Below, one piece after another: positions 2,907 to 5,963 of a DNA stretch of 64,000 nucleotides. Made by a program: the position numbers and the translations under genes. Source of the DNA: a virus (taxonomy: Duplodnaviria; Heunggongvirae; Uroviricota; Caudoviricetes). Where the stretch lies: the IMG/VR virus record IMGVR_UViG_2609460060_000003, positions 1-64,000 of that record. The stretch is one strand, 5' to 3'. The notes below the pieces were generated by a model. The model did no database searches, had not been told where the DNA came from, and worked only from the letters and a program-made list of their open reading frames with translations. The stretch's first letter is position 1; the number at the start of each line of letters is the position of its first letter.

Positions 2907-3039
2907 AAAGACCTCATAAGCGAATTTTTTACGCTCCAGGACAAACACCCATTCACAGCCAATACCGACTGACTCGATCCCTTTAGAAGGCACAGGATAA
3001 TGCAAATCACTTGTTAGCTACGTTTCAAAGATATACATT

Positions 3040-3056
3040 ATTGCTCTAATTAATTT
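3040..3056. promoter_or_regulatory. C1 repressor operator-like site (ATTGCTCTAATTAATTT) between divergent lyz and ssb
   Basis: One mismatch to the P1 C1 operator consensus ATTGCTCTAATAAATTT. Confidence 0.5.
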
Positions 3057-3075
3057 ATTTTATTAGGTAAGATAA

Positions 3076-3564
3076 GTGGCACAACGCGGTGTAAACAAAG
3101 TCATCCTGATTGGTACCCTGGGGCAAGACCCGGAGATCAGGTATATACCAAATGGCGGAGCGGTCGGAAGACTCAGCATCGCAACGAATGAATCATGGCG
3201 CGACAAGCAAACGGGCCAACAGAAAGAGCAAACAGAATGGCATAAAGTCGTTTTGTTCGGAAAACTTGCTGAAATTGCGAGTGAGTATTTACGAAAAGGT
3301 TCTCAGGTCTACATCGAAGGGAAACTTAAAACCCGTAAGTGGACAGATGACGCCGGTGTAGAACGTTACACGACGGAAATTATCGTCAGCCAGGGCGGCA
3401 CCATGCAAATGATCGGCGCTCGCCGCGACGATTCACAATTCTCAAATGGCTGGGGGCAGTCAAACCAACCTCAAAACCACCAGCAATACAGCGGTGGCAG
3501 TAAACCTCAGAGCAACGCCAATAGCGAACCTCCAATGGACTTTGAAGACGATATTCCATTTTGA
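3076..3564 (+). CDS. ssb: Single-stranded DNA-binding protein
   Basis: GTG start; OB-fold N-terminal region closely resembling E. coli SSB, Gly/Gln-rich linker and acidic tail ending DFEDDIPF. Confidence 0.95.
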
Positions 3565-3797
3565 GAGGGCTGAAAGTTGCTCGATTACTTAAAAATAACT
3601 TTACCTAATTGGTGTAAAAAAATGGGCGCAACAAAGCGCCCCAACAATAGAGTTTCAAATTAATAAAAAGGTAATAAATAACATGAAGTTAAATTGAGAA
3701 GAGGCAATTTTATTGCCTCTTCAAAGGTGGCATGAGGGTGCCACCTATATGCGGGCAGTGACATCACTCCCTTCCCGCATATTCTTACCTACCAAAA

Positions 3798-4910
3798 TTA
3801 GAATTGGTAGGTCATACCAACAGCAACGATGTTGTCGGTTGCAACCTCAGATCTTTTGGTAAATTCACTTTCATCAATCAGGTTGATCTTGTAGTCAACG
3901 AAAGCGGACATATTTTTGTTGAAGTAATAAGTCGCACCCAAGTCGATGTATTCAACCAGATCCTGGCTGCCGAACGCACCAATATTTTCACCGCGAGAGT
4001 GCAGATAAGCGATGGACGGACGCAGGCCGAAATCAAACTGGTATTGAGCAACAGCTTCAAAGTTTTTCGCCTTGTTCGCGATAAAGTCATCACCGAAGAC
4101 AGTCATATTCTGAGTTTCAGAATAAGTTGCAGCCAGGTAAATGTTATTTGCGTCATATTTCAGGCCAGTAGCCCATACTTCAGCAGTTTTACCAGAAGCA
4201 TTCAGAGGATCCTTTTTAGCATAGGATACCTGCCCATCAGTACGATCAGATTTTGCATAGGTTGCACCAACGCCAAATCCTTCATAATCGTAAGTAGCAG
4301 ACAGACCAAAGCCATCACCATTAGATTCAACTACGTCACGGCCTTTCCAGTTGTTCACTTTTGCAGCACTATCATTTTTACCTTGATACTGCAAAGCAAA
4401 GTTCAGACCATCAACCAGGCCGAAGAAATCATTGTTACGGTAGGTGGCTACGCCAGTAGCACGCTGGGTCATAAATACATCGGTCTGAGTCCAGGTATCT
4501 CCACCAAACTCAGGCAGCACGTCAGTCCAAGCGCCAATATCATAAGCTACACCATAGTTGCGACCATAGTCGATTGAACCATAATCAGCAAAACGGAGGC
4601 CAGCAAATGCAAGACGAGTTTTATCTTTATCAGAGCCCTCAGATTCAGTACGGTTACCTTTAAATTCGTACTCCCACTGACCAAAACCGGTTAACTGGTC
4701 ATTAATCTGAGTTTCACCTTTGAATCCCAGACGAGCATAAGTCTTATCTCCGTCATCACTAGCTGAAGAAGAGAAGTAATGTTTTGCGTTAACTTTGCCG
4801 TACAGATCCAGTTTATTACCGTCTTTGTTGTAGATTTCAGCTGCTTGCGCAGACATTGCCATCAGGACAGATGCTGCAACCGCAGAGAGTGCCACTGTGA
4901 TTTTTTTCAT
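3798..4910 (-). CDS. OmpC/OmpF-family general porin (phage-plasmid borne)
   Basis: Signal peptide ending AQA, mature start [17 protein letters not shown], porin motifs (PEFGGD, YDYEGFG), C-terminal ...MTYQF; AAGGG RBS. Confidence 0.9.
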
Positions 4911-5022
4911 TTTTTTTGCCCTTTAGATTGAACTTTTCAGTAGAAAAGAAGTCACTGCGGACAAATGTTTATCTTTTTTGGATTCGTGTTTCAAGTTTTG
5001 CAAATAAAAATCAAGGTATTTT

Positions 5023-5038
5023 TGTGATCAAAATCACA
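5023..5038. promoter_or_regulatory. CRP-like palindrome TGTGA-N6-TCACA in the porin upstream region
   Basis: Exact match to the CRP half-site consensus with 6-bp spacer, about 115 bp upstream of the porin ATG. Confidence 0.3.
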
Positions 5039-5651
5039 AATAATAGCCTTGAAAACCCAATGGACTATTAGAAAAAACTCAATTCACAGAATAAAAATTG
5101 ACAAAATAGATCAAAAAACAATCAAAAATAAGCACAAAAGACAAACAATTAAATTATCACAAAAATAATAACTGTCAAAAATAGATAGCCTGTTAATTAA
5201 CAGGGCTTTAATGGATGTAGACTTGAAATCTACTTAAAAATTAGAATCAAATTAATTACTGCCGATTGGGTATTAAATTGAATCTATATTGTGAGAGTTA
5301 AAGACGATGTGTTTTAGTTATAAATGTTATTCCCTAAAATGGAGCGGTCTCATCGAATCCTGATTAATAACGAGCTAAGCTAATTCATTTTAGTATGTGT
5401 ATATCTTTACCCTCTGAATATGCAATAAAGAAGAGATATTAAACAATATGTAGCTTCAGGATTGACTCTGGAAGAATTAAAAGATCGACTAAAGTGTTCA
5501 ATATGTGGTGAGCGAAACGCAAAAATTAATTTTTTTTGATCTAACATATTAGGTAACGGCTTGCTTCCATAACCTAAAGCAAGCCACTACGCGTTTACTT
5601 TAAGTACACAATTAACATATCAGAACAGATTATTTTTGCACAATCAGGGAG

Positions 5652-5963
5652 TTAATATACGATCTGGTCTACATGATCACCAAAATCATCATCGTCGTCG
5701 TCATCATCGCCACCATCTACTGCTGGCCAATCAACAAACCAGCCAGCGTAAAGATGCAGCGTTCGGAGAACATCACTTGCGGGAGCATCAAGGGTGTTAA
5801 CGAATCCCATATAGCTATTGGGATTTGCCCCAGCTATGGCTTCAGCGATCATGTCCTCGGTAATGTCACCGGAGATAATGCTTAAACGCCCGGAAACTTC
5901 TTCATTATCATCAAATTCGATAATGGCATCTCCGCCTAATGGCGCTGCGATTTTAATCTGCAT
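5652..5963 (-). CDS. Hypothetical acidic protein, distal gene of the dar operon
   Basis: 103 aa with a run of eight Asp near the C-terminus; start overlaps the ddrB stop. Confidence 0.45.
   Translation of the reverse strand: MQIKIAAPLGGDAIIEFDDNEEVSGRLSIISGDITEDMIAEAIAGANPNSYMGFVNTLDAPASDVLRTLHLYAGWFVDWPAVDGGDDDDDDDDFGDHVDQIVY

Follow-up and report, generated by a model that had tools for sequence, protein, structure and literature searches.

A porin gene on a P1-like phage-plasmid raises the question of what it does for the element that carries it: does it add one more channel to the outer membrane of the lysogen, or does it replace the major porins of the host? We analysed the entire gap between the backbone genes ssb and hxr, positions 3565–5651 (2,087 bp), in a 64-kb stretch of viral DNA (positions 1 to 64,000 of IMG/VR record IMGVR_UViG_2609460060_000003; hereafter the window). 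The porin gene found there is ordinary and not a discovery, being the nmpC of P7-type P1-like phage-plasmids, which is already annotated. The useful result is that the cassette appears to be a complete porin-exchange module, combining the porin with a small RNA (sRNA) aimed at host porins. The 3′ untranslated region (3′UTR) of the porin gene is, judged by its sequence and predicted fold, a diverged and previously unannotated homologue of ipeX with conserved structure, and its unpaired linker is complementary to the initiation regions of ompF and ompC. We think that the cassette is a lysogenic-conversion module that probably replaces the host major porins rather than adding one.

The Porin 3′UTR Is a Diverged Homologue of ipeX

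The porin gene lies on the minus strand with its stop codon at 3798–3800, and the transcript downstream of it is organised as follows.

3616–3797, minus strand: IpeX-like 3′UTR, beginning after the porin stop codon and closing with the terminator U-run
3747–3782, minus strand: first 3′UTR hairpin (SL1), predicted fold
3725–3746, minus strand: second hairpin (SL2), predicted fold
3698–3722, minus strand: third hairpin (SL3), predicted fold
3642–3697, minus strand: single-stranded linker, predicted fold
3665–3690, minus strand: candidate seed AACUUCAUGUUAUUUAUUACCUUUUU within the linker, unpaired in the predicted fold
3624–3641, minus strand: terminator stem, followed by the U-run at 3616–3623 (terminator-like site predicted at 3641–3624)

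The initial annotation had assigned the porin its own downstream hairpins. They are borne out by the fold, for which RNAfold gives −67.5 kcal/mol (z = −6.6; the DLP12 counterpart reaches z = −9.3), and they can be further identified as parts of an IpeX-type 3′UTR. Chromosomal matches to the porin gene continue past its stop codon into the 3′UTR (3666–3797). Over its full length the window 3′UTR is 64% identical to those of DLP12 nmpC and PA-2 lc, with a conserved block in the linker, and the layout is common to both types: a long hairpin comes first, then one of 8 bp with the loop CCCUCA, then a third, followed by an AU-rich single-stranded linker and by a GC-rich terminator and its U-run. The two types differ by 19 nt in the length of the linker and at a few seed positions. 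The ipeX locus is reported to be the interval from the nmpC stop codon to its terminator, and IpeX to accumulate as a processed RNA of about 167 nt. According to secondary sources, IpeX derives from a phage porin transcript and is also present in PA-2 (PMC12197685, PMC10690425, PMC7177473, PMC5069750), and it represses OmpC and OmpF (PMC12197685, PMC5069750, PMC7177473).

The homology extends to the structure. A covariance model (R1) built from five P7-type copies recovered the DLP12-type, the E. albertii and a third variant at 54–92 bits, with E values of 1e-9 to 1e-17 for the DLP12 type, and it found one copy in the window. In an alignment of 30 sequences, 93.8% of cells were paired, compared with 33–49% in slid controls, and 14 pairs were changed on both sides, compared with 0–3 in the controls; all four helices were supported. 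Furthermore, the 3′UTR is conserved above the coding sequence (CDS), at 92% versus 77% identity in CE12-1 and 100% versus 94% in P7. An 18-nt pattern search worked in viral contigs; in 596 Gb of genome contigs nearly all of its matches were due to chance, and only that in E. albertii was real.

In the chromosomal island of CE12-1 (3996–5441, matching 3617–5071 of the window), an Lc-like porin CDS is joined to a P7-type 3′UTR, and porin allele and sRNA type seem to recombine as separate modules.

An identity with GcvB (RF00022) was considered for 3616–3802 on the minus strand and rejected, as the match scored 30.5 bits against a threshold of 42 (E 3.6e-4) and a porin 3′UTR is the wrong context for GcvB; the resemblance is taken as one of layout (hairpins, linker and terminator) and not of homology. 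This sub-threshold hit was the sole match on the element in Rfam 15, and no IpeX family was among the matches. The annotated MG1655 record lists no ipeX feature.

A Conserved Unpaired Linker Is Complementary to the ompF and ompC Initiation Regions

Conservation within the element is highest in the unpaired linker block AAC-U--UGUUAU-UAUUACC. The seed core AACUUCAUGUUAUUUAUUACC is identical in all five aligned P7-type variants, CE12-1 included, and 18 of its 21 positions are the same throughout both clades. On the basis of its complementarity to the initiation regions of ompF and ompC, we predict that the linker pairs with them. For the P7-type seed (3665–3690), the predicted duplex with ompF mRNA spans −14 to +10, covering the Shine-Dalgarno sequence and the start codon, at −23.4 kcal/mol; with the same interval of ompC mRNA it reaches −17.5 kcal/mol, chiefly around the start codon. 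For the DLP12-type seed, the predicted values are −24.0 kcal/mol with the ompC Shine-Dalgarno region (−29 to −5) and −18.6 kcal/mol with ompF (−14 to +10). The few seed differences thus shift the best predicted target from the ompC Shine-Dalgarno region in the DLP12 type to the ompF initiation region in the P7 type.

With the whole linker, none of 300 dinucleotide shuffles reached the energy of the P7-type/ompF or of the DLP12-type/ompC duplex. The background consisted of 145 unrelated initiation regions, one of which outscored ompF and was set aside as an artefact of the way in which its locus had been retrieved; against the remaining 144 unbiased regions, ompF ranks best for the P7 seed. Neither seed type pairs with the initiation region of ompN or with that of the cassette's own porin. 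The predicted pairing agrees with a source that describes regulation by base pairing (PMC5069750). Whole-molecule duplex prediction was tried and abandoned, as it returned meaningless full-length duplexes, and the linker and seed analysis with shuffles and background was used instead. The strongest unbiased background value, −22.7 kcal/mol, came from the initiation region of a functionally unassigned 233-amino-acid open reading frame (ORF) at 62587 on the plus strand and is probably due to chance.

An alternative is that the locus contributes a porin gene only, and that the 3′UTR hairpins only terminate the transcript and shield it from 3′ exonucleases, without acting in trans and with a complementarity that is inherited or fortuitous. 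Structured 3′UTRs are common, some reviews report IpeX to lack target complementarity (PMC10690425, PMC3617542), and an AU-rich linker pairs easily with AU-rich initiation regions, as the background value of −22.7 kcal/mol illustrates. Yet the most conserved part of the 3′UTR is the unpaired linker, with stems that change by compensation, and the 3′UTR is conserved above the CDS across recombinant contexts. Moreover, published accounts have the homologous element in DLP12 repress OmpC and OmpF (PMC12197685, PMC7177473, PMC5069750). The predicted duplexes span the Shine-Dalgarno sequence and start codon of precisely those two mRNAs that are known as IpeX targets, and the pairing with ompF outdoes all 300 shuffles. 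We consider a purely terminating role unlikely, and favour an IpeX-type sRNA that would act on ompF and ompC. In the searchable literature no paper joins ipeX with P7, P1-like elements or phage-plasmids; the diverged IpeX-type sRNA of the cassette and the complementarity of its conserved seed to the initiation regions of ompF and ompC both appear to be unreported.

The Porin Is the NmpC of P7-Type Phage-Plasmids

3798–4910, minus strand: porin gene nmpC (P7 type), 370 amino acids, with the signal peptide encoded at 4842–4910; the only substantial ORF in 3565–5651

The initial annotation described a complete porin of the OmpC/OmpF family with a signal peptide, porin motifs and a C-terminal Phe, and this description holds. 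Residues 29–370 match positions 1–337 of the 337-position Pfam profile Porin_1 (PF00267; E 3e-148), and the protein passes the NCBIfam OmpC subfamily model (530 bits, cut-off 484); its scores with the NCBIfam PhoE and OmpF equivalog models lie under both cut-offs. Mature porin chains in the PDB align from residue 24, which fits a 23-residue signal peptide ending in AQA (mature start AEIYNK). The PEFGG motif of loop 3 (LPEFGGDTW) and the C-terminal YQF with its terminal Phe are both present and aligned, and a full-length alignment of the porin with 11 relatives (12 sequences) contains no frameshift or truncation. From its 60–62% identity to the solved structures of OmpC and OmpF, the protein would form a trimeric diffusion channel of 16-stranded beta-barrels.

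The alignment also bears on the source of the porin, a point that the initial annotation had left to such a comparison. The amino-acid identity is 96% to P7 NmpC, 85% to intact DLP12-type NmpC, 81% to Lc of phage PA-2, 67% to the E. coli O157 porin adjoining yddG, 63% to OmpN, 62% to OmpC and 60% to OmpF. Apart from P7-type copies, the nearest porins are thus the Lc/NmpC proteins of lambdoid phages (Lc of PA-2, NmpC of DLP12/434), at 80–85%. A relative is encoded in 42 phage records, 36 of which are at 80–90% identity, nearly all of them lambdoid phages. P7, JL22, phi456 and pSvP1 all carry this gene in the identical place, flanked by ssb and odaA/hxr, with nothing essential different. Compared with P7 NmpC, the window porin (the JL22/phi456 allele) shows scattered substitutions and one short indel stretch, and the 3′UTRs of the two are 100% identical.

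The lc gene of PA-2 and nmpC of the cryptic prophage DLP12 (qsr′) share with the window gene the porin subgroup, the distance of the CRP site from the ATG, and the succession of three hairpins, linker and terminator. They differ in location, lying between the Q antiterminator and the lambdoid lysis genes, whereas the window gene has ssb and hxr as its neighbours in a P1-like plasmid prophage. Salmonella OmpD and the yddG-linked O157 porin belong to the same broad general porin group, and ompD is the name that automatic annotation often gives to the phage-plasmid gene. Within this group the comparison was made with the E. coli porin encoded beside yddG, which at 67% identity is not an orthologue of the window porin.

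Near the start of the CDS, at 4888–4894 (porin codons 6–8, ACAGTGGC), the transcript reads CAGUGGC, which is invariant across all aligned porin genes and is complementary to the 5′ end of the sRNA RybB. The nmpC mRNA is a RybB target (PMC3333887), and the plasmid porin may still be under host envelope-stress control through RybB.

The Upstream Region Is Composite and Contains a Position-Conserved CRP Site

The features between the porin start codon and hxr are as follows.

4911–4959, minus strand: inferred 5′UTR, with the Shine-Dalgarno sequence AAGGG at 4919–4924 and the invariant block CGCAGTGAC at 4951–4959
4966–4994, minus strand: candidate sigma-70 promoter TTGAAA-17-TAAACA, with the inferred −35 at 4989–4994 and −10 at 4966–4971
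5023–5038, no strand assigned: perfect CRP palindrome TGTGA-N6-TCACA (TGTGATCAAAATCACA), the sole copy in the 64 kb
5099–5430, no strand assigned: AT-rich spacer (about 27% GC) outside the porin unit, with matches only in P1-like plasmids, at 86–100% identity
5431–5538, plus strand: 3′ remnant of isaB that still encodes the final 35 residues of IsaB, RDIKQYVASGLTLEELKDRLKCSICGERNAKINFF* (compared in translation with the P1 protein)
5539–5651: isaB/hxr intergenic region, homologous to P1
5553–5590, minus strand: stable 15-bp hairpin in the isaB/hxr intergenic region (−34.7 kcal/mol, z −5.0)

As the initial annotation had proposed, the roughly 740 bp upstream of the porin are AT-rich and ORF-free: the GC content of 4911–5651 is 0.27–0.35, compared with about 0.5 in the backbone and flanks, and the longest ORFs in these 741 bp, of 51 (TTG start) and 46 amino acids, are not credible. 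Its view of them as a single upstream region does not stand. The region is a composite of the 188-bp promoter region of the porin unit, 332 bp of AT-rich DNA, the 108-bp isaB remnant and the isaB/hxr intergenic hairpin, and only the 188 bp belong to the porin unit.

Within these 188 bp, the perfect CRP-type palindrome reported in the initial annotation is real, with 0.04 copies expected in the window by chance. Its centre lies 120.5 bp upstream of the ATG. In PA-2, the lc record (J02580) annotates a CRP-binding site at 1363–1383, the centre of which is 119 bp from the lc ATG and which aligns with the window palindrome. P7-type copies and two of the islands have the site in perfect form, and a single half-site is left in DLP12 and PA-2. 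The motif CTTGAAA is invariant in all nine aligned upstream regions, and the 5′UTR block CGCAGTGAC consists of invariant columns across the P7-type, island and DLP12/PA-2 regions. Upstream of −64, PA-2 and DLP12 have no alignable homology to the window except the CRP half-site and CTTGAAA. The palindrome would be centred at −71.5 only if TTGAAA-17-TAAACA is the promoter; sites in class I CRP-activated promoters are centred near −61.5, −71.5 or −92.5.

A 12-nt perfect inverted repeat links 5017–5028 and 5156–5167 (TATTTTTGTGAT / ATCACAAAAATA) and provides a further CRP-like half-site, at a distance of 127 bp on the upstream side of the palindrome; this may be due to chance in AT-rich DNA. The A-rich repeats of the initial annotation were confirmed in part: the region is A-rich, but it contains no repeat family beyond short two-copy matches.

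The initial annotation had also looked for a micF-like divergent sRNA upstream of the porin and found none. The same result was obtained here, in that Rfam searches of 4911–5651 for a MicF- or MicC-like sRNA, at E values up to 10, gave only weak matches to eukaryotic snoRNA, U6 and lncRNA models, and fold z-scores for a structured RNA at 5180–5400 were only +0.6 to −1.95 on both strands. The putative regulatory sRNA lies downstream instead. The ompC-micF and ompN-micC pairs resemble the cassette in coupling a porin gene with an sRNA directed against a rival porin. They differ from it in that micF and micC are divergent upstream genes, whereas the window sRNA would be the porin's own 3′UTR, part of the same transcript and with no Rfam MicF or MicC match.

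The hairpin at 5553–5590 is invariant in P1, P7 and other variants and has no canonical U-run. In the P1 record AJ000741, a terminator is annotated on the matching stretch, and the hairpin is probably the terminator of the dar late operon, which would insulate the porin from late transcription. It bears directly on the proposal that the porin belongs to the lytic cycle and arises by read-through from the dar operon, for example modifying the dying cell or vesicles as decoys. The gene order would allow this, with the porin directly downstream of darA, ddrA, ddrB and hxr on the same strand. The path from hxr to the cassette, however, crosses this very stable invariant hairpin, annotated as a terminator in the matching P1 stretch, and a second terminator-like site at 5204–5189. 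The porin unit, moreover, brings along a conserved promoter region and functions in settings as unrelated as lambdoid prophages and chromosomal islands. We regard read-through expression as highly improbable, and favour transcription of the cassette from its own promoter.

A small protein encoded upstream was considered and rejected, as only short ORFs are present, the longer ones starting with TTG, with one representing the isaB remnant and another lying antisense to it. The gp17 annotated in JL22, a 39-amino-acid ORF with a TTG start at 5049–5168, is likewise unsupported.

The Cassette Is Carried by about a Quarter of P1-Like Plasmids

At the same locus P1 has the arrangement isaA-IS1-isaB, where IS1 is an insertion sequence (IS). 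Homology of the window to P1 ends exactly at the ssb stop codon (3564) and restarts at 5431, so isaA, IS1 and the 5′ part of isaB have been replaced by the segment; the porin does therefore occupy the position of IS1 in P1, as the initial annotation had stated. Along 3565–5651, nucleotide identity is 100% to the JL22 and phi456 phages, as it is to many E. coli plasmids of 90–100 kb, and 95% to phage P7, where the gene is annotated as nmpC, "NmpC precursor" (GenBank AF503408). The name nmpC is already in use for the porin gene on P1-like plasmids (PMC6906374), and the locus is one of eight recognised variable regions in P1-like phage-plasmids (PMC9603915). The possibility that host chromosome had been joined to the phage by misassembly, which the initial annotation had named together with truncation or frameshift as what could undo its claim, is ruled out: three phage genomes and about 100 complete circular plasmids have these very junctions, and the gene is intact.

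The cassette has matches in 131 PLSDB plasmids, which extend to at least 80% of its length in 99 and to only a part of it in 32, and the adjacent hxr-ddrB segment is present in 488 plasmids, which indicates that about a quarter of P1-like plasmids carry the cassette. Part of it also occurs as a transferable unit in chromosomal islands flanked by insertion sequences.

3574–5098, minus strand: transferable porin unit (3′UTR sRNA, porin CDS and 188-bp promoter region), common to the IS-flanked chromosomal islands

This 1.5-kb unit is 93% identical in the chromosome of E. coli Santai, where it lies between ISEc16 and a TnpB remnant, and 79% identical in the IS-rich islands of CE12-1 and MMC-J-0085. 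The three islands share with the window the unit as a whole, including the P7-type 3′UTR and the CRP site, and differ from it in being chromosomal and IS-bounded, with the MMC-J-0085 copy IS-disrupted. The copy in pSvP1 is interrupted by IS10 (PMC6906374), and further disrupted copies are found in MMC-J-0085 (ISVsa5) and K-12 (IS5). The spacer at 5099–5430, which lies outside the unit, has no match in E. coli chromosomes in a distant BLAST of E. coli genomes and plasmids, and contains no ORF, RNA structure signal or Rfam match.

Such a distribution could suggest that the porin is silent cargo, a recombination remnant from a lambdoid prophage or an IS-flanked island that settled in a low-GC hotspot, is silenced by H-NS and plays no role in the lysogen. 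The site is indeed one of the eight variable regions (PMC9603915) with 27–35% GC, only about 131 of 488 P1-like plasmids carry the cassette (32 only in part), and IS-disrupted copies exist. Nevertheless, the ORF is intact and 96–100% conserved across about 100 plasmids that come from several hosts and continents; conservation extends to the promoter elements, the CRP site, the seed and the terminator; and amino-acid changes relative to Lc/NmpC cluster in a few variable stretches and are not scattered as in a decaying gene. Silent carriage is on this evidence distinctly unlikely, and we prefer a cassette that is maintained for a function in the lysogen.

A Model for Porin Exchange in the Lysogen

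We propose that in the lysogen the cassette would be transcribed from its own weak promoter, probably activated by cAMP-CRP at 5023–5038 in a class I arrangement, with transcription stopping at the Rho-independent terminator at 3616–3641. The mRNA would yield a functional general porin of the NmpC/Lc/OmpD group, and the 3′UTR, of about 180 nt, would be released as an IpeX-type sRNA. This sRNA would repress translation of ompF and ompC and so lower the synthesis of host porins. The cassette's own porin mRNA, with no matching site, would escape repression, and the outer membrane would come to be dominated by the plasmid porin. Expression in lysogens, processing of the 3′UTR, repression of OmpF and OmpC, dependence on CRP and any phenotype are all steps that we infer from the sequence.

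P1 adsorbs to the core of lipopolysaccharide. Given this receptor, the benefit would lie in altered permeability and in shutting out other phages and colicins that rely on OmpC or OmpF, and not in self-exclusion. Such protection parallels the long-standing account of PA-2 lysogens. The initial annotation had suggested a role in porin replacement or exclusion, and this is the best-supported function, with the phenotype itself presumed.

Several points weigh against porin exchange. The covariation comes from about three clades, in an alignment fitted to the model, which implies few independent compensatory events. Some reviews state that IpeX acts without complementarity to ompC (PMC3617542; PMC10690425), which conflicts with the predicted pairing. 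The candidate −10 hexamer is poor and falls below the consensus scan, and the −71.5 spacing of the CRP site is conditional on this inferred promoter. The AT-rich surroundings of the cassette, whose expression is a prediction from its DNA, could invite silencing by H-NS. Finally, about three quarters of P1-like plasmids have no cassette, and the IS-disrupted copies indicate that it is dispensable and may be costly.

A more specific version of the model, which we regard as possible rather than probable, is that the seed of the P7-type IpeX has drifted from ompC to ompF, that lysogeny lowers OmpF and OmpC and raises the plasmid porin under catabolite control, and that recombination of porin and sRNA modules allows the target to be switched. 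If so, sensitivity to porin-dependent phages, colicins and beta-lactams would change.

The cassette is carried by plasmid prophages that are widespread in livestock and clinical E. coli, often with resistance genes; many P7-type phage-plasmids carry mcr-1 or blaCTX-M. If porin exchange takes place, the element would alter phage and colicin receptors, routes of antibiotic entry and antigenicity, traits that genome surveillance currently ignores. The predicted pairing also offers a directly testable base-pairing model for IpeX, whose mechanism the literature describes inconsistently. Given the precedent of PA-2 and DLP12, specialists are unlikely to be surprised.

Flanking Genes and Variants of the Locus

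3076–3564, plus strand: ssb, left backbone flank (Pfam SSB, E 7e-40; 97.9% identical to P1 up to 3564)
5652–5963, minus strand: hxr (odaA in P7), right backbone flank and final dar operon gene (as annotated in P1, P7 and JL22; PHROG 2292)

The gene at 5652–5963 is labelled differently in the two reference phages, in P1 as hxr, "possible repressor; homolog of Xre", and in P7 as odaA, "unknown protein function". Its product has no Pfam or NCBIfam family match; the repressor label looks weak, because only PHROG 2292, a family with no assigned function, was matched.

Within the AT-rich spacer, the block 5265–5340 is 93–97% invariant among four P1-like variants, compared with 73–87% for the neighbouring stretches, and this block holds no ORF, fold signal or Rfam match.

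In pEC17CM13 (pEC17CM13_2, 2958–3800), a complete isaB and its upstream region lie directly beside the same porin cassette. This intact isaB implies that the cassette first replaced isaA (and the IS1 site) and that the deletion in isaB seen in the window and P7 came later; relative to the isaB-keeping form, both have lost a further ~610 bp. Two variant plasmids, one of them pEC17CM13_2, have about 150 bp extra between ssb and the porin terminator, relative to 3589–3591 of the window.

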